A DNA stretch of 64,000 bases from Patescibacteria group bacterium (GCA_018971685.1 JAGXAG010000001.1:19162-83161), one strand, 5' to 3'; numbered from the stretch's first letter, positions 1 to 57,601 are shown. Notes: generated by a model from the letters alone, not told the origin. Program-made: numbers and translations.

Positions 1-1017
1 ATTATCTCAATTATCATTGGCCGAGAGTTAAGTAAAACTGTCGGATTAATGAAATTGGAGAGAGCAAGTATGATGAACATGAGTAACAGGGTCCAAATAA
101 ACAAGATAAGATAGTAACCAAGATTCCGCTTAGTCATATCGATGTCAGCTTTGAGAAGCGAAATGAACTTGGTCTCCGAACTGATTGCCATAATGAGAGG
201 GGTGAAGATGAATAGCACTACGAAAATTGGGTGAAAATAATATGCGATCCAGCTTAGATTTGAAAACAGCAAGTTGTTAAAAGTAATCATACTGCCAGGC
301 ATTATCATGTGCAGATAATTCGGAAGCAGAATAACCTGATTAACGAAATTCGTTGATATGAAATAAAGCACCAGATTGAATATAAATAATGGCCTGAAGA
401 ATTTTACAGAATGTTCAGATAGGAGTTCGAAAGATATTGGTTCACGTGACAGTAATCTCGAGAGAAGTGCAATAAAAGCTGATTCGACAATTGTCAGTAG
501 CAGAATGGATAGAACCCCTATGCTGACCAGAGCTATTAGGCTTCCCAATAATACCAATATCTGACTCCCTAAAAAGAAGAGAGCAATAAGAGTTATTACC
601 GCCCCAACTAACAGTGCAAGTGCAGAGTAGAGGGCAGTTTTCTTGATAAAACCTGTCGATCGTAAAATCTTAATTTTCTTGAAGAAAAGTAGAAAAGCGA
701 CTACGAGTCCCAGAACACCGAAAAGCGCCGGAAAGGTAGTTGAGCCCAATACACTCAAAGGGTGAATGGAATGAGTAGCATAGAACAACTTTGCAGTAAT
801 TGATTGCTGGACATATTGATTCACCCCGTTGTTAATTATCGTATTCCCGAGTGTTTGAGTAAGCAGAAATTTCTGTCCTATCAGCGAAGGAATTTTGAAA
901 ATAACGTCGCATGCCACGAAAAATAATATCGTGCCATAAAGCCACTTATTATCGATAATTAGCGCGAAAGATTTTTTGTAATCGGCTACGAGTTCCTTTA
1001 GTATGCTGGCGTTCATT
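1..1017 (-). CDS. hypothetical polytopic membrane protein (C-terminal part; continues past the window start)
   Basis: Uninterrupted minus-strand reading frame from ATG near 1017 to position 1 (MNASILKELVADYKKSF...). Many hydrophobic segments. Absent from the ORF track because no stop lies inside the window. Confidence 0.5.
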
Positions 1018-1095: not shown

Positions 1096-1578
1096 GTGAT
1101 GAAAATCCGTGTTAAGAAGTCAATTAGGGTGATATTCGCTCTTATCACAGGAGTCTGGATTTTCTTATTCTTAAGTTCGCTTTACTCATCACTCTGGGAG
1201 TTGCCGATCTTGTTAGGAGTGTTAGGTCTATTTTGGATAATTTTGTTCAAAAAGGTCTTGGTTGATTCGAAGATTGAAATCAATGGAAACAAAATAACCA
1301 TTGTCACGCCAAAATTATTTCGGGTGGCGGCTTATAGGAACTTCACACTTGAAAAATATGAATGGCCCTTGGCCGAAATTAAGTCATTGATACTGAAAAG
1401 AGTTAAGAAGCCTATTCAGAATGAAGCAAGCTATATTGGATACGGTCAATTATCTCTGATTGTCAGTACCTCAACCGGTGAGCATATTATTCCGGTAGAT
1501 ACATTTAGTTATGACGCAATGGTTAGATTATTTAAACCTTTTCCGATTTTCAAAGAAGAAAACCCCACCGGTCGGTGA
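1096..1578 (+). CDS. hypothetical small membrane protein (2 TM helices plus soluble domain)
   Basis: 160-aa ORF. The stop codon lies inside a palindromic repeat copy (1559-1584) that encodes the C-terminal PTGR. Confidence 0.45.
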   Translation: MMKIRVKKSIRVIFALITGVWIFLFLSSLYSSLWELPILLGVLGLFWIILFKKVLVDSKIEINGNKITIVTPKLFRVAAYRNFTLEKYEWPLAEIKSLILKRVKKPIQNEASYIGYGQLSLIVSTSTGEHIIPVDTFSYDAMVRLFKPFPIFKEENPTGR

Positions 1579-1584
1579 GGTTTT
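1559..1584. repeat. GC-rich palindromic element, short variant (AAAACCCCACCGGTCGGTGAGGTTTT); likely terminator
   Basis: Near-perfect palindrome sharing the CACCGGTCGG core with six other copies in the window. Overlaps the stop of the 1096..1578 ORF. Confidence 0.6.
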
Positions 1585-1601
1585 GTGGATCAGTGCCGCA
1601 G

Positions 1602-2165
1602 TCAGGCTGTGCCAATTTCAATGCACGCCATTTTCTGGGGATGATTTGCTAAGCTAATCTTTTTCGAAAGGGCTTCGATCTCTTTTTCAAAACCGACGCT
1701 TGTATGTTCCAGGTCCGGGATCTGAAGGACTTTAACAGGTTCTGGCAATATAATCTCTACCTCCGGACCAGCCTTGCTTTTGACCGCGGAGATGAAGCTT
1801 CGTCTTTGCGTGCAGAAGGGCTCCGGCATTGAATCCCATCCATGGCCCCAGCACTCCATTTCTAACTTTCTCAAAGGCAGGTAGCGGATGAGTAGCTTTG
1901 AAGAAGATATGCGAAGCTCGACATCTTCTCGAGGGTAAAACCTCTGCACCGCAACCTTCATTAAGGTCCGAGGATCACACGTAGCCACTGTGCGGCAATA
2001 CGGACCACCCGGCTCGATGGTTGAGAAAACCAGACCCGGGAAGTGTTTGGTCAAGAGGTCCTTGATTTCAGTCATCGTCAGCACCTCCCGATCGGAATCC
2101 TTTTGACACGAGTCGTCTACGAACTCCTTTAGTCTTGGCAGTAACATTGAATTTTCAATTTTCAT
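1602..2165 (-). CDS. hypothetical protein (island cargo, gene 2 of a two-gene minus-strand operon)
   Basis: Start chosen at MKIENSML, which is preceded by AAGGAG; the track ORF extends to 2198. About 52% GC, unlike the AT-rich left flank. No recognisable motif. Confidence 0.5.
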   Translation of the reverse strand: MKIENSMLLPRLKEFVDDSCQKDSDREVLTMTEIKDLLTKHFPGLVFSTIEPGGPYCRTVATCDPRTLMKVAVQRFYPREDVELRISSSKLLIRYLPLRKLEMECWGHGWDSMPEPFCTQRRSFISAVKSKAGPEVEIILPEPVKVLQIPDLEHTSVGFEKEIEALSKKISLANHPQKMACIEIGTA

Positions 2166-2175
2166 ACAAGTCTCC

Positions 2176-2814
2176 TTATGACGGTTTGACCAGCCCACCT
2201 TCTACCCATTCGATGACACGATAATCGCCGAAGCAACTATCGTTACGCCATTCATTGCAATCCGATAGGGAGCTCCACTCCCAGTTGATTCCATGCCATC
2301 TCATGCAGCGAATGTCCTGCCGGTGTTGCAGACCCAACATCGCTCCATTGGACGTGAAGCCCAGCACTGTTCCGAAGAAGTAGATTTCAAACTCTCTCCA
2401 CTCGACGGGAATCAGGTATGGGTATTGAAGCAGATAATCCAAAAGGTTTGTGTTACATGTAGGCCTGCCGCGAAGCACAGGAATCATTTGACCGATCGTG
2501 GGGAACTTATTTCCTCTTTTCGGTTCAGGTAGACATTCCGGAATGCTTAACCGGACTGCGTCGGGAGCCCAAGTGCGACGCCCCTGCTTCACGTGTTCAT
2601 CAACTCCAAACTGATTCGGAACAAACGGATCAGCATCGCAGTCGATCGTGTGAACGATGTTTTCCCAGCACGGCTGCTTACGTAGGTATCGATTGAGTTG
2701 GTATTCATATTCTGGACCATCTTCACCTGTCACTTTGATCATCAGGTCAGTAAACGGTCCGCGCCAGAACTTGCGGAGCGTTTCTGGATTACCGAGTATG
2801 TTGGTAGACATAGT
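2176..2814 (-). CDS. hypothetical Cys/His/Trp-rich protein (island cargo, gene 1 of the operon)
   Basis: Start chosen at MSTNILGNPETL behind a GGAA RBS; the track ORF runs to 2895. Lies 10 nt upstream of the next gene. No recognisable family. Confidence 0.45.
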   Translation of the reverse strand, partial: TMSTNILGNPETLRKFWRGPFTDLMIKVTGEDGPEYEYQLNRYLRKQPCWENIVHTIDCDADPFVPNQFGVDEHVKQGRRTWAPDAVRLSIPECLPEPKRGNKFPTIGQMIPVLRGRPTCNTNLLDYLLQYPYLIPVEWREFEIYFFGTVLGFTSNGAMLGLQHRQDIRCMRWHGINWEWSSLSDCNEWRNDSCFGDYRVIEWVEGGLVKPS

Positions 2815-3098
2815 CAGTTCCTTTCGTTTTTCGAGGTTCTTGTTGCTGGACTCTTCGCCACAGCGGAAGCTTAACTTCTGACATAACAATACCATTTCTG
2901 TAAGGAATCGTCAATCCCACCCTGTTTTGTACCCCGTTATTGCCACCTGTTCGCCCCTGTGTGCGCTTTTCAGTGCGGAATTGGCCGTTTCCACGCCTTC
3001 GGGCAAGTTCATGCCGGTGTGCCCGAATTTTGCCTAAGTTGCCTATTGCGGAAAAGCTCGGTCGAGAGTTAGGATGGATTTACGTAAAAGAACGCCAT

Positions 3099-3374
3099 AT
3101 GACTACGAACGCCAATGACATCGATGCCGGTATTAAACTCCTTTTAGAAAAGCTATCTGAAGAATTTGAGATAGTAAAAAGGCAGGGTTTTCCTGCAAAA
3201 GCATATTTTCGTTCGTATCCGCCTCGAACGTGTGATGTAAGCATTCCAAGTCCGAGGTGGCATGCCTGGGCTCGTGAGCTCGATGTTGATGAAGTCCGAT
3301 TCGAAGCGTTGATAAAAATTCTGGCAAAAGAAGGTTTTCTGGAAGGTTATAAATTTATCTCTGAAAGCCAATGA
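3099..3374 (+). CDS. hypothetical small protein (possible winged-helix); start uncertain (alternative 2940)
   Basis: ORF 2940..3374; internal start MTTNANDIDAG chosen because the upstream part is Arg/Cys-rich and low-complexity. Its stop overlaps the start of the next gene. Confidence 0.3.
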   Translation: MTTNANDIDAGIKLLLEKLSEEFEIVKRQGFPAKAYFRSYPPRTCDVSIPSPRWHAWARELDVDEVRFEALIKILAKEGFLEGYKFISESQ

Positions 3375-4372
3375 TTAATCTTGAATTATGGTTTCCAGAA
3401 GATTTCGACAAGCGATATGCAAAATATCGTGAGGATCATGTTGAAAATAAAATGCCGGAACCTTTCTTTTCCGAACGTTTGCAGAATGAACGAAAAAATA
3501 TCTTATCTATAAAAACCGAAGATGATTTCCGAAATGAAATTGAAAAGTGGAGTCCCCTTAAAACCATTATTGATGCCATTCATAAAGACCTCTCTCCATT
3601 TTTGCCTAGTAGCGCTCAAGTAATAAATATCGACCTTACAAAATTGGGAATCTCTGAAAAGGAAGCTGGTCATATTTTGATGATGCTGGCCTACGAGCGA
3701 ATTTGCAGATGGAAAATAAATAAGAGCTCGGCAGTCATATCAACAGAGGCTCTGGCGGGGTATTTAGGCGGAAACGGCATCGTCATTCCTGACTACGATA
3801 AATTTCAAGGATTTAGGAAAGAGGTTATGGATTTCTATGAATTTTTAGAGGATCAGAGAAACCAGAAATTTCCGAAAAGTAATGCGGCGAAGGCGGAAAA
3901 TGTGAAGAATAATAAACAGGAATCTGCGGCTGATTCCGACGTAATTGATGAGACTGTAAAAAGAGTGGCCGTATGGGGCGGAGAAACTGTATCCGATTTA
4001 CCACTGATTACCTATAACGAGGTCACTGGCAAAGGTGAGGTTATTGGTAAAAAGAAATTCAAGTTTAAAGACGGTAGCCCGGAGTATAAGATTTTCAATA
4101 TGCTTTATGCCAAGCTGGCTAAAAAGACCGCCAAACTCGAGCGGCAGGACGTGCTGATAGCCGGTGGTTTTTACAAGGATTATGAGGAGCCTGACCCGAC
4201 ACGAAAAACAAACGAAACAGCATTCATAAACGAGGTAGCTAAATCTATCAGAGAAAAGACTGGTTTGGATACCGAGGAGCTCGTGAATAATAACGGCAGT
4301 TTAACCTTGCTCGTCTTGCGGCAGGATAAGAATCCACCAAAAGTCACCAAGTTCGTCCCGGTCTGGGGCTAA
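3371..4372 (+). CDS. hypothetical protein, 333 aa (island cargo)
   Basis: Long ORF translationally coupled to the upstream gene (ATGA overlap at 3371-3374). No recognisable motif. Confidence 0.5.
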   Translation: MINLELWFPEDFDKRYAKYREDHVENKMPEPFFSERLQNERKNILSIKTEDDFRNEIEKWSPLKTIIDAIHKDLSPFLPSSAQVINIDLTKLGISEKEAGHILMMLAYERICRWKINKSSAVISTEALAGYLGGNGIVIPDYDKFQGFRKEVMDFYEFLEDQRNQKFPKSNAAKAENVKNNKQESAADSDVIDETVKRVAVWGGETVSDLPLITYNEVTGKGEVIGKKKFKFKDGSPEYKIFNMLYAKLAKKTAKLERQDVLIAGGFYKDYEEPDPTRKTNETAFINEVAKSIREKTGLDTEELVNNNGSLTLLVLRQDKNPPKVTKFVPVWG

Positions 4373-4452
4373 ATCGCACCAGATTGCCTCTAAATTAAAA
4401 GCTTGCTCAAGAACATAATCTGGCAAGCCCAGCTTTTTTCATTCAGCCAAAT

Positions 4453-4526
4453 CCGAACGCCATGCGGAGAAGTCAATTTTTTGCATAGTCCGTCCTTACT
4501 GGCGTTCGGAACGGATTATGCAAAAA
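4453..4526. promoter_or_regulatory. two interleaved inverted repeats (CCGAACGCCA/TGGCGTTCGG and TTTTTGCATA/TATGCAAAAA) upstream of the excisionase-like gene
   Basis: Read directly from the sequence. Lies in the 170-nt gap between the cargo genes and the int/xis module. Confidence 0.4.
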
Positions 4527-4539
4527 GCGGGCTTCTTAC

Positions 4540-4722
4540 ATGCTGCCACAAGAAGCCATAGATGAGTTCAAAAAGCTCTATAAGGCACGCTTCGGGGTCG
4601 ATCTCACCAATGAGGAAGCGTCTTTCCGAGCCAATAACCTCGTGAATCTGTACGAGGCTGTTTATGATACTTCCTGTGGCAAGCAAAGCGAGGCTCCTGA
4701 ATCTAAACCATGCCAGCCATGA
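4540..4722 (+). CDS. hypothetical small protein (60 aa)
   Basis: ORF-track entry immediately downstream of the inverted repeats. Overlaps the start of the next gene. Confidence 0.3.
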   Translation: MLPQEAIDEFKKLYKARFGVDLTNEEASFRANNLVNLYEAVYDTSCGKQSEAPESKPCQP

Positions 4723-5135
4723 CCAGATTCAACCCTCAAATTATCAGCCGACATTTGAGCTACACCTTGCCGGAAATTGCAGCGAAACTCCACATGACCA
4801 AGAAATCTCTATATCGATGGATTGACGAGGGTCTGCCGATCGTTCCGGGCCAGAGGAAACCCATCCTGATCCATGGCGATGACCTCAAGACGTTCATCAA
4901 TGCCCGCAATTCGAGACATAAAGTGAAGCTGAAAAGACACGAGTTCTACTGCTTCAGATGCAGGGCTCCGAGGCAAGCAAAGAGGGGTACGATAACAAAG
5001 TCCGGCTATACGAGAAGTGGTGAGTGCAGTGTTTGTAACGGCAAAATGCAGAGGAAATTTAGACCCTATCAAAAGGACTATCACATATCCTCATCTCCCG
5101 TCCAAATGTCCACATTGTTCGATAATCTGACATAA
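4710..5135 (+). CDS. excisionase-like HTH (MerR/HTH_17-type) DNA-binding protein with C-terminal Cys4 zinc ribbon
   Basis: LPEIAAKLHMTKKSLYRWIDEGLPIV is a helix-turn-helix. CFRC...CSVC is a zinc ribbon. Sits directly upstream of the integrase. Confidence 0.5.
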   Translation: MPAMTRFNPQIISRHLSYTLPEIAAKLHMTKKSLYRWIDEGLPIVPGQRKPILIHGDDLKTFINARNSRHKVKLKRHEFYCFRCRAPRQAKRGTITKSGYTRSGECSVCNGKMQRKFRPYQKDYHISSSPVQMSTLFDNLT

Positions 5136-5142
5136 CACCAAA

Positions 5143-6291
5143 ATGACAAAAATTAGTGAGAAAAATGAGCCTGAAAAGCTCACCGAGGATACTTCGATTC
5201 CGTACCGAAATGAGCAGGCCAAAAGACGCTTCTTCGAGCACCTTTCTGGCGGTGAAGGGTTCGCCGGTGAGTCGGTTTCAACCTTTGCCGAGGCTGTCGG
5301 CCAATGGCAGCAGTTCTCCAAAAATGATGACTTTGTTAATTTCGATAGAAGTAAGGCAACGGAGTTCGTGGCTTGGCAGAAAACGCGTCCGACCAAAGCC
5401 AAAGGCGGAAAGCTCGCATTGCAGACGCAATATAATTATCTTCGCCGCATCAAGCGATTCTTTATGTGGCTTGCGGAGCAGAAAGATTACAAGAAAATTA
5501 AGAAGGATGACATCGATTATCTGCGCCTGCCAAGAAAAGAGGCTCGAATGGCCACTGCCGGCACGACCAGAGTGATGCCGACGTTCGAGGAAGTGAAGCG
5601 GATCATAATGAGTATCCATCCGAAGAATGAAATCGATGAGCGTGATCGCGCCATATTGAGCTTAGCTTTGATAACTGGCATGCGCATATCGGCCATAGCA
5701 ACCTTGAAGATGAAGAACTTCAACCGAGCAGATAAGCTCTTTGATCAGAACCCAGGCGATGGCGTGTTGACCAAGAACTCAAAGAAAATCCTGACCACGT
5801 TCTTTCCGATCGGCTGGGATGAGCCGGAGCGATTCTTTCTCGACTGGTATGACCACTTGGTATCAAAAGGAGCAAAGCCAGATAGCCCGATATTTCCATC
5901 GACTCTCAAAGGATTTTCGGGCAAGAATGATTACAGCAAGACTCTTGTAAGCGATGAGAGCTGGGCCAGCTCGAGCGGTGCCAGGAAGATATTTGAGAAG
6001 CGATGTAAGGCTGCCGGTGTAACTTACTTCAATCCGCATTCGTTCCGGCATCTCATCGTAAACTATATGAGCAAGGCCAGATTGACTGAGGAAGAAAAGA
6101 AAGCCATCAGTATGAACCTCGGACATGAGAATGTCGGCACAACATTCGGTTCCTATGGTTACGGAAATATGACACCCATTGATGCCGTTCATATCGTGCA
6201 GAAGCTAACGATGACTCCGACCAACGGCCAGAGCGTCATTATTACTCCCGAGGAAAAAGCTGCACTCGAGAAATTATTGAAACGTCTATGA
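5143..6291 (+). CDS. int: tyrosine site-specific recombinase / integrase
   Basis: Catalytic-domain motifs: R in GMRISA, HSFRH, LGHENVGTTFGSYGY (catalytic Tyr). Adjacent to a tRNA gene. Confidence 0.8.
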   Translation: MTKISEKNEPEKLTEDTSIPYRNEQAKRRFFEHLSGGEGFAGESVSTFAEAVGQWQQFSKNDDFVNFDRSKATEFVAWQKTRPTKAKGGKLALQTQYNYLRRIKRFFMWLAEQKDYKKIKKDDIDYLRLPRKEARMATAGTTRVMPTFEEVKRIIMSIHPKNEIDERDRAILSLALITGMRISAIATLKMKNFNRADKLFDQNPGDGVLTKNSKKILTTFFPIGWDEPERFFLDWYDHLVSKGAKPDSPIFPSTLKGFSGKNDYSKTLVSDESWASSSGARKIFEKRCKAAGVTYFNPHSFRHLIVNYMSKARLTEEEKKAISMNLGHENVGTTFGSYGYGNMTPIDAVHIVQKLTMTPTNGQSVIITPEEKAALEKLLKRL

Positions 6292-6337
6292 AGAAAATCA
6301 GCTTGGCTTCCATGCCAAATAAGCACATAATATCAAC

Positions 6338-7963
6338 ATGAAGAACGCCAAGGAAACGCCAGTCAAATACTTCCTGTATGCCAGGAAATCGACCGAATCA
6401 GAAGACCGGCAGGTGCTTTCGATTGAGTCGCAAATCGACGAGCTGAAAGCTATCGCTGACCGAGAGAACATAAAAATTATCGAAGTGCTCCACGAATCGC
6501 GGTCCGCTAAGGCTCTTGGCCGACCAGTATTCAACGATATGATTGACCGCATCAATCGTGGAGAGGCTACCGGCATCCTATGCTGGAAGCTCGATCGCCT
6601 GGCTCGTAATTTCATTGACGCGGGCAAGGTCATCGAGATGTTGCAGCACAGCGTCATTCGGCACATCCGAAGCTATGAAAAAAGCTACTATCCGCAAGAT
6701 AACGTGCTCATGATGAGCCTCGAGTTCGGCGTGGCCAACCAATTCTCCCGCGACCTTGCGGTGAATGTGAACCGAGGCATGAAGAAAAAGGCCGAAATGG
6801 GCTGGTATCCGGTCCAACCACCAATCGGCTATCTGAACAGTAAGAATAAGGGCAAAGGCAAGAACGACATCTCAAAAGACACCGAGCGATACGACATCGT
6901 GCGAAAAGTCTTTGATCTTATGTTGACTGGCACGATGTCAGCTCATCAAGTCTGGCTGACTGCTACGGAAAAATATGGACTGCGAACACGGAAAGATAAG
7001 CTGATTTGCCGCAGCTCGATTTACTACGTGCTGACCAATCCTTTTTACTACGGCATGTTTGAGTGGCCACGAGGAAGCGGGACGTGGTATCGAGGAGCGC
7101 ATGAACCGATGATTACTGAAGAAGAATACGATCGCATTCAGATATTGCTCGGCAGAAAGGGCAAGCCTCGCCCAAAGAGTCACATCTTCGACTTCACCGG
7201 CATGTTTCGATGTGGAGAGTGCGGCGGCGTCATCACGGCAGAGGAGAAGATAAAGCGACCAAAGAACGGAAACGTGCATCGCTACATTTATTATCACTGC
7301 ACAAAGCGTGTCCATCCCGACTGCACGCAAGGCTCTATTGAAGTGACGGAGCTGAAGAAGCAGATCATCAAAAAGATTGAATCCTTGGAGATTCCTCCAG
7401 AGTTCCACACCTATGCCTTAAAATGGTTCAGGAAGAAGAACGAAAAGGACGTTGAGACGAATACAACGATTCTATCCGCGCAACAGAAGGCCTACGATGC
7501 CTGCGTACGAAAAATCGGCGCATTGATTGATATGCGTGCCACCAACGAGATTACATCCGAGGAGTTCGCCGATAGGAAGACATACCTCGTAAAGGAAAAG
7601 AGTCGACTTGAAGAGCTCCTGAACGATACCGGCGATCGCGTCAATAAACAACTTCAGAACGCCGATGATCTATTCACGTTCCTGCGCGATGTTGTCGAAA
7701 AGTTCAATACCAAAGGTTTTGAGACCAGAAGACGCATACTTTCGACACTTGGTCAGAACCTTTTGCTAAAGGACAAAATACTAAGCATTGACTGGGAGAA
7801 ATCGCTGTTGCCATCACAAAAGCTCGCCGGTGAAGTGAAGAAAATCCACGAACGGTTAGAACCTACAAAAAACAAGATGTCACAAGGAGATTTGGAAGAA
7901 ATCTACTCCAAAAATCCAATAGTGTGCGCCCAGTTGGAGTCGAACCAACGACCCACTCCTTAA
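6338..7963 (+). CDS. large serine recombinase (resolvase domain, recombinase domain and zinc ribbon)
   Basis: N-terminal YARKSTESEDRQVLSIESQ with catalytic Ser. CGECGG...YYHC zinc ribbon. Coiled-coil C-terminus. The last ~13 codons overlap tRNA-Lys. Confidence 0.8.
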   Translation: MKNAKETPVKYFLYARKSTESEDRQVLSIESQIDELKAIADRENIKIIEVLHESRSAKALGRPVFNDMIDRINRGEATGILCWKLDRLARNFIDAGKVIEMLQHSVIRHIRSYEKSYYPQDNVLMMSLEFGVANQFSRDLAVNVNRGMKKKAEMGWYPVQPPIGYLNSKNKGKGKNDISKDTERYDIVRKVFDLMLTGTMSAHQVWLTATEKYGLRTRKDKLICRSSIYYVLTNPFYYGMFEWPRGSGTWYRGAHEPMITEEEYDRIQILLGRKGKPRPKSHIFDFTGMFRCGECGGVITAEEKIKRPKNGNVHRYIYYHCTKRVHPDCTQGSIEVTELKKQIIKKIESLEIPPEFHTYALKWFRKKNEKDVETNTTILSAQQKAYDACVRKIGALIDMRATNEITSEEFADRKTYLVKEKSRLEELLNDTGDRVNKQLQNADDLFTFLRDVVEKFNTKGFETRRRILSTLGQNLLLKDKILSIDWEKSLLPSQKLAGEVKKIHERLEPTKNKMSQGDLEEIYSKNPIVCAQLESNQRPTP

Positions 7964-7997
7964 AAGGGAGTTGCTCTACCAGCTGAGCTATGGGCGC
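7925..7997 (-). tRNA. tRNA-Lys (anticodon UUU)
   Basis: Manual fold: GCGCCCA acceptor, GCTC/GAGC D-stem, ACTCC-CTTTTAA-GGAGT anticodon arm, GTTGG-TTCGACT-CCAAC T-arm. 73 nt; CCA not encoded. Confidence 0.75.
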
Positions 7998-8087
7998 ATA
8001 CATTACATGTTCAACAATAACACGGGTTCCGCACTCGATCAAACCAATGCGCGATCAGACACAATAGTCAGATCAGTCAACACGCCG

Positions 8088-8825
8088 TCACAACTCCGAT
8101 TTAATCCCGAGCAACAGTCTTTCGATGCCAAGTTCAAGGTCAATAGCGCCGCGATGAGCGTCGTGGTAGAGAACGGTCAAATTCCGAAGGAGTGAGTGCA
8201 GTTCGACCGACGAATAATTGGCGGCATACCTTTTCGATTTGTTGAAAACGAACGGGTTCATGTCCGATTCGACGACACTTTTTGATTTTGCCGCGACCGC
8301 CATCGATTTTGCTTGCCAGAATAAAGTGCCGACAATATTTTCCGGCTCAGTGCCGGCACCGATCGCTTCGCAGTAGAGCGACCAGGCCTTGAATGAATCG
8401 CGCGCGCCGAGCGCGTCCGCGAGCGCAAATATGCTTTTGCCGTCGGCTTTTCCGGCGCCAAACGAGACGGCATCGTCGTTTTCAACTGACCTTTCCGCGT
8501 GTTTTTCGAACGCTTTTTTCAATTCCGCGTTCAATCTGCCCTCGAGCACGATAAATATGTTCGCCGATTCATTCATAGCCTCGGCAAAACCGGCAATTTG
8601 TTCCTTGGCCTCGATGTTTTCCGCAACCCGGTCTAGGAATATTATGTATTTATTCGAGAACAGCCCTTGGCCGTCCAAGTGTTCCTCTATTGTCGCCGGA
8701 CTCCAATGATCCGCATCGATTGCCACAAAAGCCGCGTCGGGACGCTTGCTTTTCAGTGAATTCAAAAGTGTGTGCGCCTTTTTCGCGCTTAACTCCGTGT
8801 TTTGGCCGTGAAAAACATATAACAT
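8088..8825 (-). CDS. holA: DNA polymerase III delta subunit-like (HolA N-terminal domain pattern)
   Basis: MLYVFHGQN...GLFSNKYIIFLDRV matches the delta-subunit N-terminal pattern. Short at 245 aa. Confidence 0.5.
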   Translation of the reverse strand: MLYVFHGQNTELSAKKAHTLLNSLKSKRPDAAFVAIDADHWSPATIEEHLDGQGLFSNKYIIFLDRVAENIEAKEQIAGFAEAMNESANIFIVLEGRLNAELKKAFEKHAERSVENDDAVSFGAGKADGKSIFALADALGARDSFKAWSLYCEAIGAGTEPENIVGTLFWQAKSMAVAAKSKSVVESDMNPFVFNKSKRYAANYSSVELHSLLRNLTVLYHDAHRGAIDLELGIERLLLGIKSEL

Positions 8826-8833
8826 GGCGGCTA

Positions 8834-9289
8834 TTATTTGTGCATGTCCGACATGTGTATCGATCTGTCGTTTTCGCCGACAGCTTCAAACTCGATCAGG
8901 CGTGTATTGTTCGGCAATATTTCTTTTACTTTTTCCATCCACTCGATCAAGATCAGATTGCCTTCGTCTGCCACAATGTCTTCGAAACCAAGCACCGCCA
9001 GCTCCCTGCCCTCTTCCAATCTATAAGCGTCTATGTGAACCAGTTTTTTCCAAGGTCCGATCTTGGGATCATACAACTTCATGATGACGAAAGTCGGACT
9101 GGTTACCTGTTCGACCACTCCCAATTCCGCGGCAACCGCCTGGGCAAATGCCGTCTTGCCCGAACCCAGATGGCCGGAAAGGCCTACAACTGTCGCTTCA
9201 TCCGCGCTTTTCTCGAACGAAATCACGGTCAGACAGTGGCGGGCGATTTCGCGCGTTTGTTCTGGTGAATGTGAGATGAACAATTTCAT
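8834..9289 (-). CDS. tsaE: tRNA threonylcarbamoyladenosine biosynthesis ATPase TsaE (YjeE)
   Basis: GLSGHLGSGKT P-loop. About 150 aa. Typical TsaE layout. Confidence 0.7.
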   Translation of the reverse strand: MKLFISHSPEQTREIARHCLTVISFEKSADEATVVGLSGHLGSGKTAFAQAVAAELGVVEQVTSPTFVIMKLYDPKIGPWKKLVHIDAYRLEEGRELAVLGFEDIVADEGNLILIEWMEKVKEILPNNTRLIEFEAVGENDRSIHMSDMHK

Positions 9290-9356
9290 AAAATATTTAC
9301 TCCGCTAACGGATTCTCGCTTTCACGGGAATAATAAACCCTTTCAACTATGCACAT

Positions 9357-11912
9357 TCACTTCAGCTCGCCCCAATTATCACCGACGCTCTCATGTGCCG
9401 CCAATATTATCCCTTTCGTATTCTTCGGATCAACAACCGACTCCATGATCCGTTTTATTTCCTTGGCAACCGTTTCAACTTTATCTTCTCTGATTTCGTA
9501 GATCAATTCATCGTGCACTTGCAATAACGGAAAAACTCCGCCGCCTGGATTTTCACACTCCAAATATTCATCGATCTTGACCATGGCCAGCTTGATAATA
9601 TCGGCTTCGGTACCTTGGATCGGCGCGTTGATTGCCATGCGTTCGGCCTGCGCTTTGATATAGGGGATTTTCGAATTTATGCCCTCGAAGTATCTGCGCC
9701 GCCCGAACAAGGTCTCCGTGTAACCGCGGCGCGCCGTTTCTTCCTTGATCTTGTCCAAATAAGAAGCCAGCGTGGCAAATTCCGCAAAGTAATCATTCAA
9801 GAACTTTTGCGCATCTTCCCTGCTCGCGCCCAGATTTTGCTTCAAGGCCAAGACGCCCATGCCGTATATGATGCCGAAATTGATCACTTTCGCCCGGCGT
9901 CTCATTTCCGGCGTAACATTTTCCGGCTTTACCTTGAATGTGAAGGCGGCCACGGCGGTATGGACATCTTCGCCTTTTCTGAAAATATCGATCAGTTTTT
10001 TATCACCCGACAGAAACGCTGCGATGCGTAACTCCATCTGTGAATAGTCGAAAGCCGCCAACTTGAACCCCCTCTCGGCGACAAACGCATATCTGATCGC
10101 CTTGCCGAGTTCCGATTTGACCGGAATGTTTTGCAGATTGGGATTTTCCGACGCCATGCGGCCGGTCGCCGCGCCGCTCTGGATGAAATGCGTGTGCAAT
10201 CTGTCGTTTCCATCCAGCAGCGGCGGTATGGCGTCGATATATGTAGACAACAATTTCGACAACTCACGGTAATCAAATATCATCGGCACCACCGGGTGCA
10301 TATCACGCATCTTTTCCAGCTCCGATTCGCGTGTCGACCGCGCGCCGCCGGCCGTTTTCTTGCCGTTTTTTATCTTCAGCCCCAGCTTGTCGAACAAAAA
10401 TTCGCCCAGCTGCTTCGGCGAGTTTATGTTGAATTCCCCGCCCGCCGCGTCCCAAATCTTCTTTTCGATCATTTCCAACTCGGCGTGGTATTTCTCCGAC
10501 AGTTTTTTCAGCGCGTTTTTGTCGACTTTTATGCCGCGCTGTTCCATCTTGCGCAATACCGGCGCAAGCGGCCGTTCGATCTCATTGTATATTTTACGCT
10601 GGCCGCTTTTATCCAATTCATCGAATATCACTTTTTTGGCTTCATTTAAGTTTTTCACGCCCGTAAAATTCATAATATCTTCCAACTTTGGGTTTGTCAT
10701 ATTGGAATTCACCAGCCATAAGGCGAGCGCCGCCTGTTCGAATTCGCCTTCGTTCGCCGACGCCTTCCGCAAATGAGACCCCTCGAGTTCCGCGACTCTG
10801 CCGCGAAGCAATCCGTCGCCGCGTTTCCCAACCGACAAGTCCGTGCATGTCCGAGAGGACTTGTCGGTTGTGGAAACGCCGACGGTTGCGAGCGGCATTC
10901 GCGAAACTCGAGGGGTCTCATTTGCGGAAGGCGCGGCGCCGGCGAAAGTTGATGAAATGCCAACAGCCTTTTCAAGCCTCTGCGGCAATGTCCGGAACTC
11001 CAATTCGCGCCACAGTGTATTGATTTTCTCCAAATCAAGTCCTTCCTTGAAAGATTTGTCCGGCAGCGAAAATTTGATGGGTGCGTCACGGCGAATCGTC
11101 GCCAGCATTTTACTGAATTCGGCGTCTTCTTTGCTCTCTTTCAATATCTTTAAAAGCCGCGGCGTCAGTCCGGCCTTCTTAAACTTTTCATCATGTCCGG
11201 ATTCCAATTCTCGGTAAATATCATCAATCCCGCCAAAAACGGTTATAAGAGCTGTGGCTGTTTTCTCGCCTATGCCCGCCACGCCAGGAATATTGTCCGA
11301 CGGATCGCCCCGCAGGCCTTTGTAGTCCGGAATCAATTCCGGACCAAAACCGAAACGCTTTCTCACCGCGTTCTCGTCGTACATGATCGTGTCGTTTATG
11401 CCTTTTTTGAGGGTATAAACCTTAACATCTTCGCCGTGAATTAATTGCATGGTATCCATGTCGCCGGAGGCAATAACGATCTCAACTCCATTGTTAGTCT
11501 CCTCCGCCGTCTCGACGAGAGAGGTGGTGGCCAACTGATGAACAATAGTCCCGATAATGTCATCGGCTTCAAAACCCTGCGCATCATATATGGGAATACC
11601 GAGTGCCGCAAAGATATCACGAGAACGAATGATTTGCGCGATGAGATCATCCTCTGTTTTTTTGCGGCCGGCTTTGTATTCTTTGTAAACTTCATGGCGA
11701 TATGTTGGACCTTTGACATCGTAACAGGCGATCATGTAATCCGGCTTCAAATCCTCGATGATTTTTATGAGCATGGTCGAAAGCCCGTAAATCGCGCCCG
11801 TCGGTTCACCCTTTTTAGTCGCGAAATCCGGCAAGGCGTGATAAGCGCGGTGGAGGATCGCGTGGGCGTCGAGCAATACCAAGCGTTTTTTGCCTTGAAT
11901 GGTTTGCGGCAT
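9357..11912 (-). CDS. polA: DNA polymerase I (5'-3' exonuclease plus polymerase domain; no 3'-5' exonuclease domain; palindromic in-frame insert at the domain junction)
   Basis: N-terminal FEN/5'-nuclease motifs (LVLLDAHAILHRAYHAL, EADDIIGT). C-terminal family-A pol motifs (RRRAKVINFGIIYGM, QVHDELIYE). 851 aa. Confidence 0.9.
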   Translation of the reverse strand: MPQTIQGKKRLVLLDAHAILHRAYHALPDFATKKGEPTGAIYGLSTMLIKIIEDLKPDYMIACYDVKGPTYRHEVYKEYKAGRKKTEDDLIAQIIRSRDIFAALGIPIYDAQGFEADDIIGTIVHQLATTSLVETAEETNNGVEIVIASGDMDTMQLIHGEDVKVYTLKKGINDTIMYDENAVRKRFGFGPELIPDYKGLRGDPSDNIPGVAGIGEKTATALITVFGGIDDIYRELESGHDEKFKKAGLTPRLLKILKESKEDAEFSKMLATIRRDAPIKFSLPDKSFKEGLDLEKINTLWRELEFRTLPQRLEKAVGISSTFAGAAPSANETPRVSRMPLATVGVSTTDKSSRTCTDLSVGKRGDGLLRGRVAELEGSHLRKASANEGEFEQAALALWLVNSNMTNPKLEDIMNFTGVKNLNEAKKVIFDELDKSGQRKIYNEIERPLAPVLRKMEQRGIKVDKNALKKLSEKYHAELEMIEKKIWDAAGGEFNINSPKQLGEFLFDKLGLKIKNGKKTAGGARSTRESELEKMRDMHPVVPMIFDYRELSKLLSTYIDAIPPLLDGNDRLHTHFIQSGAATGRMASENPNLQNIPVKSELGKAIRYAFVAERGFKLAAFDYSQMELRIAAFLSGDKKLIDIFRKGEDVHTAVAAFTFKVKPENVTPEMRRRAKVINFGIIYGMGVLALKQNLGASREDAQKFLNDYFAEFATLASYLDKIKEETARRGYTETLFGRRRYFEGINSKIPYIKAQAERMAINAPIQGTEADIIKLAMVKIDEYLECENPGGGVFPLLQVHDELIYEIREDKVETVAKEIKRIMESVVDPKNTKGIILAAHESVGDNWGELK
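10763..10931. repeat. 169-bp imperfect palindrome inside polA (27-bp perfect outer arms 10763-10789 / 10905-10931; 14-bp inner arms 10829-10842 / 10857-10870), kept in frame
   Basis: The outer arms (CCTTCCGCAAATGAGACCCCTCGAGTT and its reverse complement) were read directly. The six-frame track shows open frames on both strands across it. Confidence 0.7.
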
Positions 11913-55608: not shown

Positions 55609-55683
55609 GCCCTCGTGGTGAAACGGATATCACAGCGGTCTTCGGAACCGTTATTGCAGGTTCGATTCCTGCCGAGGGCACCA
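55609..55683 (+). tRNA. tRNA-Arg (anticodon UCG), CCA encoded
   Basis: Manual fold: GCCCTCG/CGAGGGC acceptor, GTGA/TCAC D-stem, GCGGT-CTTCGGA-ACCGT anticodon arm, GCAGG-TTCGATT-CCTGC T-arm, then ACCA. Confidence 0.65.
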
Positions 55684-55766
55684 TATAGGAAGTTGCAGTA
55701 ATTTTGCGAAAATATGATTATCGGGTATACTTGATTGTGAGAGTTGTGGTTTGTTATTGTCCGTAT

Positions 55767-55837
55767 GCGGGTATCGTTTAGTGGTAGGACGCGTCCTTGC
55801 CAAGGACGAGGTTGGAGTTCGATTCTCCATACCCGCA
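55767..55837 (+). tRNA. tRNA-Gly (anticodon GCC)
   Basis: GCGGGTA/TACCCGC acceptor, CGTCC-TTGCCAA-GGACG anticodon arm, TGGAG-TTCGATT-CTCCA T-arm. Confidence 0.7.
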
Positions 55838-56051
55838 CAAGTAAAATTTGTTGTCTTTATGTGAATATGGTCTGTATAAAATGGCTTAGGACCGTTATTT
55901 TCGGCATTGAAACTGTGGATAAGTCTGTTAACAGTGTTGATAAAAGTCACAAAAAATGGCTTTAATATGTTGACTTTGTTCTTTATTAGCCGGTCCATAA
56001 AAATTTAATGGCTTAACCGTAGAATTTATCAAGGAAATAATTTTAAAAGTC

Positions 56052-56444
56052 ATGGAAATTGTGTTGCACAAACGAGCAAAAGGGAATAAAGGTGAAGATA
56101 TTGCATGTAAATTTTTGGAACGGCATAATTTCAATGTTATTGACCGTAATTATCAGAAAAAGTGTGGAGAACTCGACATAATAGCCAAAAAGGACAAGGT
56201 TGTTCATTTCTTCGAAGTCAAAAGTGTAACCGGCGATTTTTCTGAAAAATTTTTAGACGCCCATCGTCCCGAGGATAATGTTGATCAATGGAAAATAAGG
56301 CATTTAAGGCGCATTATAGAGACTTATATTGCTGACAAGAAATTAGGTCCCGAAGCAGAATTTCATTTTCATGTTCTGTGTGTTTACATGAACTTGGATA
56401 ATAGGCGTGCCGTGGTCAAGTGGCTAAAAGACATTATTTTATGA
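56052..56444 (+). CDS. yraN: YraN/UPF0102 family PD-(D/E)xK endonuclease
   Basis: KGEDIACKFLERHNFNVIDRNYQKKCGELDIIAKKD...FFEVK motif order. Confidence 0.7.
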   Translation: MEIVLHKRAKGNKGEDIACKFLERHNFNVIDRNYQKKCGELDIIAKKDKVVHFFEVKSVTGDFSEKFLDAHRPEDNVDQWKIRHLRRIIETYIADKKLGPEAEFHFHVLCVYMNLDNRRAVVKWLKDIIL

Positions 56445-56508
56445 TAAAGTATAGTCATATACCTCGTCGTAACCTTTAACGAAATGAGAGGTTACGGCGA
56501 GGTAATAC

Positions 56509-56581
56509 CGGAGCGTGGTGTAACGGCTAACATACCTGTTTTGGGTACAGGTGACTCCGGGTTCGAATCCCGGCGCTCCGA
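56509..56581 (+). tRNA. tRNA-Pro (anticodon UGG)
   Basis: CGGAGCG/CGCTCCG acceptor, CCTGT-TTTGGGT-ACAGG anticodon arm, CCGGG-TTCGAAT-CCCGG T-arm. Confidence 0.7.
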
Positions 56582-56634
56582 CATGTGGATACAAATATGC
56601 GAATTTTACTAATGATACGAATATTACAAATAAT

Positions 56635-57084
56635 ATGAAGAAGATCGTACACTTTTTCGACAAGTTGGAAGATAGGATACGCGAGCATTTGAGCCACTAT
56701 CCTATTCTTTATACGATCATAGGGGGCGTAGCCATCGTGCTTTTCTGGAGAGGAGTATGGCATACGGCTGATATGTTGGAAGGACAAGGCGGCTGGCTCG
56801 GTTTTATATTCTATGAGCCAATAAATCTGTTGATCGTTGTCATCATACTGCTTATGACTGGTCTTTTCGTGTCATACTTTATCGGGGATACTATACTCAT
56901 GAGTGGTTTGAAACATCAGAAAAAATCCACTGAGAAAACGGAAAGAGAAGTACAGGAAGAAGAGTCAGAATTAAAAAATATAAGATCTACCATAAAAGAG
57001 ATGAAAAAGGAGGTTGATGAGATAAAGGACGCAGTTAACACCGGTCGGACCCGTGCCACCGGTCAGACCGGTGTAAGATCATGA
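56635..57084 (+). CDS. hypothetical membrane protein with C-terminal coiled coil; last about 14 codons encoded by a palindromic repeat
   Basis: Start at MKKIVHFFDK; the track ORF begins at 56551 over the tRNA-Pro 3' end, which is implausible. Two TM helices. Confidence 0.45.
   Translation: MKKIVHFFDKLEDRIREHLSHYPILYTIIGGVAIVLFWRGVWHTADMLEGQGGWLGFIFYEPINLLIVVIILLMTGLFVSYFIGDTILMSGLKHQKKSTEKTEREVQEEESELKNIRSTIKEMKKEVDEIKDAVNTGRTRATGQTGVRS
57038..57074. repeat. composite GC-rich palindromic element (ACACCGGTCGGACCCGTGCCACCGGTCAGACCGGTGT)
   Basis: Overlaps the 3' end of the upstream CDS. Identical copy at 57453-57489. Confidence 0.6.
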
Positions 57085-57449
57085 TTTCATACGAAGATTT
57101 CAAAAAAGTCGAGATAAAAGCGGGCAAGATATTGTCTGCGGAGAAAGTTCCCGATACCGATAAGCTATTGAGGCTATCAGTTGATTTTGCCGAGAATAGG
57201 GAAGTGACCGGTGAAGATGGTGTTGTCGTGGCAAAACCGCATGTCCGTCAGATAATTTCGGGCATATCTGCGTATTTTCCAGATCCGCAGTTGCTTGTAG
57301 GTAAAACATGCATGTTCGTGACCAATCTGGAGCCGAGAGTTATTCGCGGTTTAGAGAGTCAAGGCATGATATTGGCGGCGAAGACTGATACAGGCTTTTC
57401 TCTACTGGAGCCTAATGATTCTATTCATCCCGGTGCCACCGCTTCATAA
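57081..57449 (+). CDS. tRNA-binding domain protein (CsaA/YgjH, EMAP-like OB fold)
   Basis: FKKVEIKAGKILSAEKVPDTDKLLRLSVDF...GISAYFP matches the Trbp111/CsaA pattern. Start overlaps the upstream stop (ATGA). Confidence 0.6.
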   Translation: MISYEDFKKVEIKAGKILSAEKVPDTDKLLRLSVDFAENREVTGEDGVVVAKPHVRQIISGISAYFPDPQLLVGKTCMFVTNLEPRVIRGLESQGMILAAKTDTGFSLLEPNDSIHPGATAS

Positions 57450-57452
57450 ATA

Positions 57453-57489
57453 CACCGGTCGGACCCGTGCCACCGGTCAGACCGGTGTA
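57453..57489. repeat. composite GC-rich palindromic element, second copy
   Basis: Identical 37-mer, 4 nt after the CsaA-like stop. Confidence 0.6.
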
Positions 57490-57530
57490 TAATGCGCTTG
57501 TCAACGGAATCTGTTAGTATAGAAATCGCG

Positions 57531-57601
57531 CGGGATTAGTTAAATGGTATAATAACAGTTTTCCAAACTGTGGTCAGGAGTTCGATTCTCCTATCCCGCA
57601 C
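57531..57601 (+). tRNA. tRNA-Gly (anticodon UCC)
   Basis: GCGGGAT/ATCCCGC acceptor, ACAGT-TTTCCAA-ACTGT anticodon arm, AGGAG-TTCGATT-CTCCT T-arm. Confidence 0.65.

Follow-up and report, generated by a model that had tools for sequence, protein, structure and literature searches.

A tandem element at a Patescibacteria tRNA-Lys gene and a large serine recombinase as its probable integrase

A stretch of 64,000 nt from a Patescibacteria group bacterium (GCA_018971685.1 JAGXAG010000001.1:19162-83161; hereafter the window) carries, next to the gene for tRNA-Lys(UUU), recombinases of two different families: a Xer-like tyrosine recombinase and a large serine recombinase (LSR). This raises the questions whether the locus is a mobile element, where such an element begins and ends, and which of the two enzymes would insert it. 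An initial annotation of the window had described an integrated element at positions 1559-7997, and all features that it listed are present: the tRNA gene, the two recombinases, a helix-turn-helix (HTH)/zinc-ribbon gene, an inverted repeat and open reading frames (ORFs) without a family match. The explanation that best accounts for the whole, to which we give a probability of about 0.72, is that a serine-integrase element, E2, is inserted at tRNA-Lys in tandem with a smaller element, E1. All mechanistic statements below, which concern the enzyme that cuts at each site, the activity of the element and the functions of the LSR tail and of the tyrosine recombinase, are inferences from sequence.

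Two Patescibacteria contigs at NCBI, L001 and L003, match the window at 100% identity, and both extend further to the left (L003 coordinates equal window coordinates plus 8902). Within the window itself no direct repeat of the tRNA-Lys 3′ end is present, even when three mismatches are allowed. The attachment repeat that the initial annotation expected there could be found outside the window, at -1606 to -1543, because the two contigs reach further left. At that position (L003 7296-7359) the 64 nt of window 7868-7931 are repeated perfectly, and the repeat can be extended to 75 nt at 96% identity (L003 7285-7359). The common core is much shorter: GTGCGCCC, the final 8 nt of tRNA-Lys, is all that the tRNA and the far end of the element share. 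This core occurs at three places, L003 5796-5803, L003 7352-7359 and window 7924-7931, and each of the first two copies is followed by the same left end of ~74 nt (TATTGAAYGAAGTCAGAACC...TGGTAA). The three cores together with the two copies of the left end therefore indicate that the locus is a tandem array of two insertions. A 64-75-nt attachment core, which would favour a tyrosine integrase, was also considered and is ruled out by the second left end and by the related element L006, which has equal ends and a 9-nt repeat. The long repeat is instead what remains of the right end of E1, and the core proper measures 8 bp.

With these boundaries and this tandem structure established, E2 is a full element of 9,474 bp in its circular form, extending from L003 7360 to window 7931, the core (7924-7931) included, with its left end ~1.5 kb to the left of the window start. 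The extent first proposed for the element must thus be replaced by one of 9.47 kb that begins left of the window. A palindrome at about 1560-1590, earlier taken for the left end, does have the appearance of a terminator; it lies, however, between two convergent cargo genes and does not end the element. Likewise, the G+C content does fall to the left of ~1600, but the AT-rich region 1-1560 is cargo inside E2 and not DNA outside it. E1 is a mini-element of 1,556 bp (L003 5796-7359; window -3106 to -1543) that consists of a left end, a gene for a PemK/MazF-like toxin, in whose company no antitoxin was recognised in E1, a 271-aa gene and the last 75 nt of an LSR gene, that is the P arm and the core. 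It is a remnant, a deleted or miniature element, and may be mobilisable in trans by the recombinase of the neighbouring element. The 271-aa protein of E1 contains a HEILH (HExxH) motif.

Comparison with related genomes supports the view, already put forward in the initial annotation, that this is an integrated mobile element. The relative L093 (62% holA identity) is collinear with the present genome on both flanks, which comprise S20, RuvA, Mur ligase, amidase, Fpg, SpoU and DoxX-like genes on one side and holA and polA on the other. Between them L093 has 642 nt where the present genome has 11,228 nt. Its interval contains a tRNA-Lys(UUU) gene whose GTGCGCCC end is unoccupied, an empty locus established in a relative, as well as one 116-aa ORF. 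In the present genome E2 occupies the 3′ end of tRNA-Lys(UUU), between holA and the DoxX-like/SpoU block, and other genomes carry different cargo at the same tRNA. Together these results show that the island is a genuine mobile element inserted at the 3′ end of tRNA-Lys. The initial annotation had also considered that the recombinases might be chromosomal Xer paralogs. This is not seen: matches of the tyrosine recombinase to XerA, XerD and XerC are weak and N-terminal, scoring 38-52 bits against family cut-offs of 220-335, and its gene sits in the variable island missing from L093, a placement unlike that of a single-copy housekeeping gene that is conserved. The host is a Patescibacteria (Candidate Phyla Radiation, CPR) bacterium; holA relatives are labelled Paceibacterota or Parcubacteria, and one related contig is labelled Saccharibacteria.

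The sequence evidence indicates that the LSR is probably the integrase of this element. We favour it because in dozens of relatives, with or without a tyrosine recombinase, the LSR gene runs into a tRNA gene in a fixed register, and because the far end of the element encodes the LSR tail, which places the attachment site of the element (attP) inside the gene, and shows a 5-bp shift of a motif. The LSR has the Pfam domains PF00239 (1.6e-19, residues 12-155), PF07508 (5.9e-11) and PF13408 (9.2e-09), and its active site is intact: among 32 homologues the catalytic serine S18, in YARKSTESEDRQ, is nearly invariant and C292, C295, C321 and C329 of the zinc ribbon are invariant. An AlphaFold model of the homologue P0103 displays long helices at residues 356-460 and resembles the SPbeta, Bxb1 and PhiC31 integrases over its whole length (Foldseek matches at 1e-18 to 1e-12). 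More than 6,000 homologues are found at E below 1e-20, mostly metagenomic or from uncultured bacteria; none above ~27% identity occurs among 50,697 phage and 72,556 plasmid records. At its 3′ end the LSR ORF overlaps the last 40 nt of the tRNA-Lys gene on the opposite strand; the final 8 nt of this tRNA form the crossover core, and its T arm is the B′ half-site. In 40 of 86 related loci the LSR ORF likewise runs over the 3′ end of an opposite-strand tRNA gene, and in about five more the tRNA lies wholly inside the LSR ORF read-through. The relatives use 20 tRNA species, and the junction is also present where no tyrosine recombinase gene occurs, as in L009, L095 and the majority of the 86 loci. 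The LSRs constitute a large family, not described before, with tRNA genes as targets; some of its members always occur together with a tyrosine recombinase.

At the far end of E2 the conserved C-terminal tail of the LSR is present as in-frame coding sequence, and attP therefore lies inside the LSR gene, 25 codons before its stop codon. In the circular form the ORF reads via the core into the left end and gains LLNEVRTAVLGISGISPFGLVRSW followed by a stop, which gives a protein of 555 aa versus 541 aa in the integrated form. The rejoined tail is like that of the uninterrupted homologues P0063, P0089 and P0103, and such a tail results when LSR and far-end arm are joined not only in E2 but also in E1, in L009 (tRNA-Arg, no tyrosine recombinase gene) and in L077 (tRNA-Asn). 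Between the E1 and E2 tails 12 of the 25 codons differ, eight of the 12 differences being synonymous, and the DNA similarity of the left ends stops at the stop codon. Directly after that stop codon, the left end of each element has a sequence like an extended -10 box together with a gene for defence or for a toxin. In the model of P0103 the crossover falls in the helix 529-543, with 10-residue blocks averaging 78-90 in the predicted local distance difference test (pLDDT). The integrated LSR, in turn, takes its final ~10-11 codons before the stop from the tRNA complement. This replacement tail is not conserved; in L006 it is read in another frame.

The register is fixed throughout the family. 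In all 53 interrupted LSRs an anchor, P.(V/L/M/W), is followed by exactly four residues and then by (D/E)(S/L)N, the translation of the T-loop sequence TTCGAAC. In uninterrupted LSRs the anchor is followed by six residues and (V/I)R(T/N), mostly encoded by GTTCGAACC or GTTAGAACC, in 35 of 36 matches; in the exception, P0095, an upstream motif was matched falsely. Expressed in nucleotides, the T-loop motif is 14 nt past the anchor codon in the tRNA (53/53), and the T-loop-like motif is 19 nt past it in the uninterrupted genes (35/36) and in the far-end arm of E2. It follows from these spacings that the distance from the crossover to the T-loop-like motif in attP exceeds that to the T-loop in the tRNA by 5 bp. 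As a sequence pattern this matches the published rule for serine integrases, according to which the motif for the zinc-ribbon domain is shifted 5 bp toward the centre in attB, the host site (Rutherford et al. 2013; PMC3783163). A second motif (CAATAG, CTATTG, CAGTTG) is, in our own reading of the sequences, equally distant in the P, P′ and B′ arms, a placement that fits the expectation for the recombinase domain. The possibility that all uninterrupted LSRs are excised forms was rejected, since some, for example L041, sit in long contigs between other genes.

These features suggest the following mechanism. The LSR would recombine attP, inside its own gene, with the 3′ end of tRNA-Lys. The 8-bp core is a copy of the discriminator base and the 3′ acceptor strand of the tRNA, so that integration would leave the tRNA intact. 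The T-loop-like sequence GTCAGAACC of the P′ arm, 5 bp farther out than the T-loop, would tell attP from attB. Integration would exchange the conserved C-terminal helix (LLNEVRTAVLGISGISPFGLVRSW) for ~10 tRNA-derived residues. Excision at the 8-bp core would give the junctions ...AATCCAATAGTGTGCGCCC joined to TATTGAATGAAG, in the LSR context, and AAATAAAAGTGCGCCC joined to AGTTGGAG. A further reading, which we regard as speculative and rather unlikely, is that this clade consists of self-sensing integrases: insertion into a tRNA would take away a helix of the C-terminus that is structured and conserved, and would thereby switch activity or direction. In the subfamily present here, the tyrosine recombinase, together with its HTH/zinc-ribbon and 60-aa partners, would then carry out the reverse step, either excision or resolution of tandem copies, in a two-recombinase system with separate forward and reverse steps, a T-loop landing pad and retargeting to another tRNA through changes in the 8-bp core only.

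Several observations weigh against a serine-integrase element of this kind. The only empty locus is that of L093, a relative with 62% holA identity in which the tRNA is inverted relative to holA. An exact search of JGI metagenomes for the predicted empty junction gave no match, and among 90 loci there was no terminal overlap that would reveal a circular contig and no excised form. Tandem insertion requires a reaction of attP with attR, which serine integrases normally disfavour. Serine integrases need an asymmetric central dinucleotide for polarity; here it could not be placed, the apparent symmetry centre falling on a palindromic GC. The 8-bp core between CAATAG and CTATTG looks like the core site of a tyrosine recombinase as well. 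For the tRNA-His clade, which has a tyrosine recombinase, the reconstruction of the tail was not convincing, and a 1-nt deletion in L006 would truncate its excised-form LSR. Finally, the VRT motif of the tail is also found in relatives away from tRNA genes (e.g. L041); it may therefore be kept for protein reasons, its likeness to the T-loop being partly coincidental.

Some of these points are those expected of a fixed relic, that is an island that was inserted but is immobile, in which a tail-less LSR is inactive and which persists as a stable defence island. In line with such a relic, all four contigs with the exact holA protein also carry the island, neither an empty junction nor a circular contig was found in the searches just mentioned, the adjacent E1 is clearly degenerate, and the P arm of L006 is frameshifted. 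However, E2 has kept both recombinase ORFs, its ends and the coding of the tail in frame intact, and the divergence is mostly synonymous; the modules of near relatives carry wholly different cargo elsewhere, implying recent turnover; and the species sampling behind the four contigs is very small. A relic is, accordingly, an unlikely explanation.

The place of the tyrosine recombinase has to be considered next to that of the LSR. All 24 homologues compared, down to 33% identity, share its active-site residues R181, K211/K214, H299, R302, H328 and Y340 without exception. A search of the 86 LSR loci with a profile of this protein detects it in 10, always directly upstream of the LSR and on the same strand. 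A list of 536 homologues, mostly from Patescibacteria, provides three more contexts, in each of which an LSR is immediately downstream (in one case missed by the annotators). The tyrosine recombinase gene thus lies 17-160 nt upstream of an LSR gene in 13 of 13 independent contexts, at protein identities down to ~35%, and the pairing spans LSR clades that are only ~40% identical and reside at different tRNAs. Adjacency in 13 of 13 contexts means that the pair is a conserved module, and not, as the initial annotation suspected, the mark of a composite or nested element. We know of no precedent for a strictly linked pair of a tyrosine and a serine recombinase, and literature searches yielded neither such a pair in Patescibacteria nor a described tRNA-targeting LSR family.

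The tyrosine recombinase belongs to an accessory module (leader hairpin, 60-aa ORF, HTH/zinc-ribbon gene and tyrosine recombinase gene) present in about one tenth of the LSR family, and we regard it as an accessory partner of the LSR. The module most likely serves the control or reversal of integration, that is excision or resolution of tandem copies. The HTH/zinc-ribbon protein matches a PHROG excisionase/regulator at 0.001, and its homologues are found only in loci with the tyrosine recombinase. The 60-aa ORF may encode a regulator or a directionality factor; in the element as a whole no gene was recognised as coding for such a factor. Candidate sites for the tyrosine recombinase are CAATAG-8 nt-CTATTG at attP and the hairpin at 4468-4536, which has a spacer of 8-17 nt and is missing from L090.

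This hairpin is identical over ~85 nt in L005 and L006, whose surrounding sequences are 82-85% identical, and a variant with compensatory stem changes occurs in L091. Its fold z-scores are -4.0 (RNA) and -5.3 (DNA), and the sense strand folds at -37 versus -28 kcal/mol for the antisense strand. It has no Rfam match, was looked for and not found in distant modules, is absent from L090 although that locus has the tyrosine recombinase gene, and travels with the 60-aa ORF. The conservation, the compensatory changes, the sense-strand fold, the lack in L090 and the link with the 60-aa ORF therefore point to a probable function as leader RNA or operator for the recombination operon. A role as a tyrosine-recombinase site or integron-like capture site is not supported, given the 8-17-nt spacer, the lack of another copy in the window, its absence from L090 and its better folding as sense RNA.

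An alternative assignment of roles is that the tyrosine recombinase integrates the element into tRNA-Lys, the LSR being an accessory resolvase or invertase that merely abuts the site. A 2020 survey found t(m)RNA genes used by 44.5% of tyrosine integrases versus 4.9% of serine integrases (PMC7192596). The same survey counted 14 of 297 serine integrase cases at t(m)RNA genes, a use that it described as previously unreported and in need of proof (PMC7192596). The 6-bp inverted repeats around the 8-bp core give a layout typical of tyrosine sites, an HTH gene resembling an excisionase gene lies before that of the tyrosine recombinase, the active site of the latter enzyme is intact, and tandem arrays at tRNA genes are typical of tyrosine-integrase elements such as tycheposons. 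Against this, relatives without a tyrosine recombinase (L009, L095 and ~35 others) show the same LSR-tRNA junction and register, and the tyrosine recombinase family is never seen without an LSR (13/13 contexts). In addition, it is the tail of the LSR that the far-end arm encodes, a 5-bp shift of the motif marks serine integrases specifically, and the tRNA duplication is only 8 nt instead of the usual longer 3′ fragment. We therefore consider integration by the tyrosine recombinase improbable.

Very improbable is a chance meeting of two unrelated elements: despite two recombinase families within 3 kb, a mosaic of G+C content along the island and a locus that is truly a tandem of two insertions, the two genes keep the same order, strand and close spacing across LSR clades and tRNAs, neither is bracketed by a second pair of repeats, and homology among related elements extends as a single unit from the hairpin to the LSR. 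The locus is composite in another sense, as the full element E2 stands in tandem with the 1.56-kb remnant E1.

The LSR-carried element can be compared with several known systems. Like the serine integrases PhiC31, Bxb1, A118/LI, SPbeta SprA, XisF and CcrB, the LSR has three domains with a catalytic serine, a zinc ribbon and a long coiled coil, and it appears to use short attachment sites with a small core and a half-site motif 5 bp closer to the centre in attB. It differs from those enzymes in several respects: it shares at most 27% identity with anything in the phage and plasmid records, it targets a tRNA gene at the 3′ end, attP is located within the ORF of the integrase so that the C-terminus is swapped, and a subset of the family carries an obligate tyrosine recombinase partner. 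With tRNA genomic islands and tycheposons the element has in common insertion at a tRNA 3′ end with restoration of the tRNA, tandem arrays, remnants, small size and variable cargo. In those islands, however, a tyrosine integrase is used and a longer piece of the tRNA is duplicated, whereas here a serine LSR is at the junction and 8 nt are shared; the tyrosine recombinase present here is not at the junction and is missing from most relatives. Nor is the locus a classical island of the Islander type: the gene next to the tRNA is the LSR, and of the 64-nt repeat only 8 nt belong to the tRNA, the remainder being LSR coding sequence that E1 left behind. Archaeal integrases of the SSV1 type are split on integration, and in mycobacteriophages with integration-dependent immunity attP lies inside the repressor gene, in both cases with tyrosine integrases. 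As in these examples, integration alters the C-terminus of a protein of the element, and the free and integrated forms differ. Here, in contrast, it is a serine integrase whose gene is split, the exchange being confined to the last 24 residues of the protein.

Serine integrases are valued tools for genome engineering and were thought to avoid tRNA genes; the family described here sits at no fewer than 20 (at least 20) tRNA species in one fixed register. Its attachment sites appear to be predictable by a simple rule, in which a core from the acceptor stem is combined with a T-loop motif displaced by 5 bp. Confirmation of this rule would make available many integrases with targets among the most conserved sequences in biology. 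A gene that is split by the reaction of its own product also offers a route to study how the state of integration is sensed. Furthermore, the finding shows movement of defence genes among Patescibacteria, whose routes of gene exchange are poorly known.

Further members of the LSR family and its surroundings yielded additional observations. In L095, at 7782-9431, a distant LSR of 538 aa with the active-site motif VIYCRVSTDDQ reads into tRNA-Lys(UUU) beside holA and keeps the same register (...CAQKDLNLRPSA). Targeting of tRNA ends may therefore reach beyond the LSR family studied here. In the public annotation of GCA_028865255.1 and GCA_028870795.1 only the C-terminal 302 aa of the LSR are called, which affects window 6338-7054, and in L090 the LSR ORF at 8319-9977 is intact yet no recombinase is annotated. 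These three intact ORFs that were miscalled or not called indicate that the family is under-annotated. In L041 (7840-12178; JGI contig Ga0208872_1000007, 276 kb) an LSR of 40% identity with an intact tail lies between ORFs of 2606 and 2158 aa, possibly as a small element that interrupts a giant gene.

The positions of the features of E2 that fall within the window are collected in Table 1.

Table 1. Features of the tRNA-Lys element, in window coordinates
Feature	Position	Strand	Basis or remark
Membrane protein gene (367 aa, multi-pass), 3′ 1016 nt	1..1016	-	Gene call in the identical contigs; AT-rich; cargo
Predicted membrane protein, 159 aa, cargo	1099..1578	+	Gene call; no match in Pfam, PHROG or PADLOC
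Palindromic terminator-like hairpin between two convergent cargo genes	1559..1584		Palindrome; element continues to its left
187-aa ORF	1602..2165	-	Counterpart in related element L005, 60% aa identity
211-aa ORF	2176..2811	-	Counterpart in L005, 83% aa identity
91-aa ORF	3099..3374	+	Gene call
333-aa ORF, final cargo gene before the recombination module	3371..4372	+	Gene call
Conserved imperfect hairpin	4468..4536	+	26-nt arms, GGCGTTCGG in loop, directly before start codon of 60-aa ORF
60-aa ORF	4540..4722	+	Conserved at 54-88% in related modules
HTH_17 (MerR/excisionase-type) protein, 141 aa, with CxxC...CxxC C-terminal zinc ribbon	4710..5135	+	Pfam 3.1e-07
Xer-like tyrosine recombinase, 382 aa	5143..6291	+	PF00589 9.5e-16
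LSR, integrated (tail-swapped) form, 541 aa	6338..7963	+	Pfam Resolvase, Recombinase, Zn_ribbon_recom
attR	7857..7931		P arm (LSR 3′ coding sequence) plus 8-bp core GTGCGCCC at 7924-7931
tRNA-Lys(UUU), intact	7924..7997	-	ARAGORN; Rfam 73 bits

The 367-aa gene is whole in L003 (8815-9918), its start being 87 nt to the left of the window. It and the 187-, 211-, 91- and 333-aa ORFs have no match in Pfam, PHROGs, NCBIfam or PADLOC. Homology with L005 and L006 begins just past the 333-aa ORF, at about window 4426. Outside the window, at the left end of E2, both genes of the PADLOC candidate system PDC-M04 (DUF3800 plus a partner) are present and adjacent: PDC-M04A, the DUF3800 gene, at L003 7462-8166 (PDLC04353, 2e-89) and PDC-M04B at L003 8168-8734 (PDLC04357, 3.3e-37). 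The cargo of E2 is thus defence-like, as judged from sequence; PDC-M04 is a candidate system only, and no mention of it was found in the literature searched. In relatives the cargo consists of Gabija-like, type III restriction-modification-like or toxin genes. L005 is 85% identical in nucleotides over the recombination module and resides at the same tRNA, as do L006, with Zeta toxin cargo, and L095, with its distant LSR and no tyrosine recombinase gene. The context of P0002, likewise at this tRNA and beside holA and polA, contains a Gabija-like ATPase plus a UvrD helicase, a reverse transcriptase and bAvd. There is no indication of a prophage: no element gene has a structural PHROG or Pfam match, no close phage-record or IMG/VR match was obtained, and scans of IMG/VR with the repeat and with the left-end pattern gave no match.

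Two observations concern the window beyond the element. A cluster of tRNA genes (Arg-TCG, Gly-GCC, Pro-TGG, Gly-TCC) is located at 55609-57601. The polA ORF (9357-11912, minus strand) contains a nested palindrome at 10761-10933, with 35-nt arms that are 97% complementary and 103 nt apart and additional inner arms of 19 nt. PolA is 851 aa long here versus 793 aa in one relative, and 845 and 857 aa in two others, which suggests an in-frame palindromic insertion resembling a miniature inverted-repeat transposable element (MITE).

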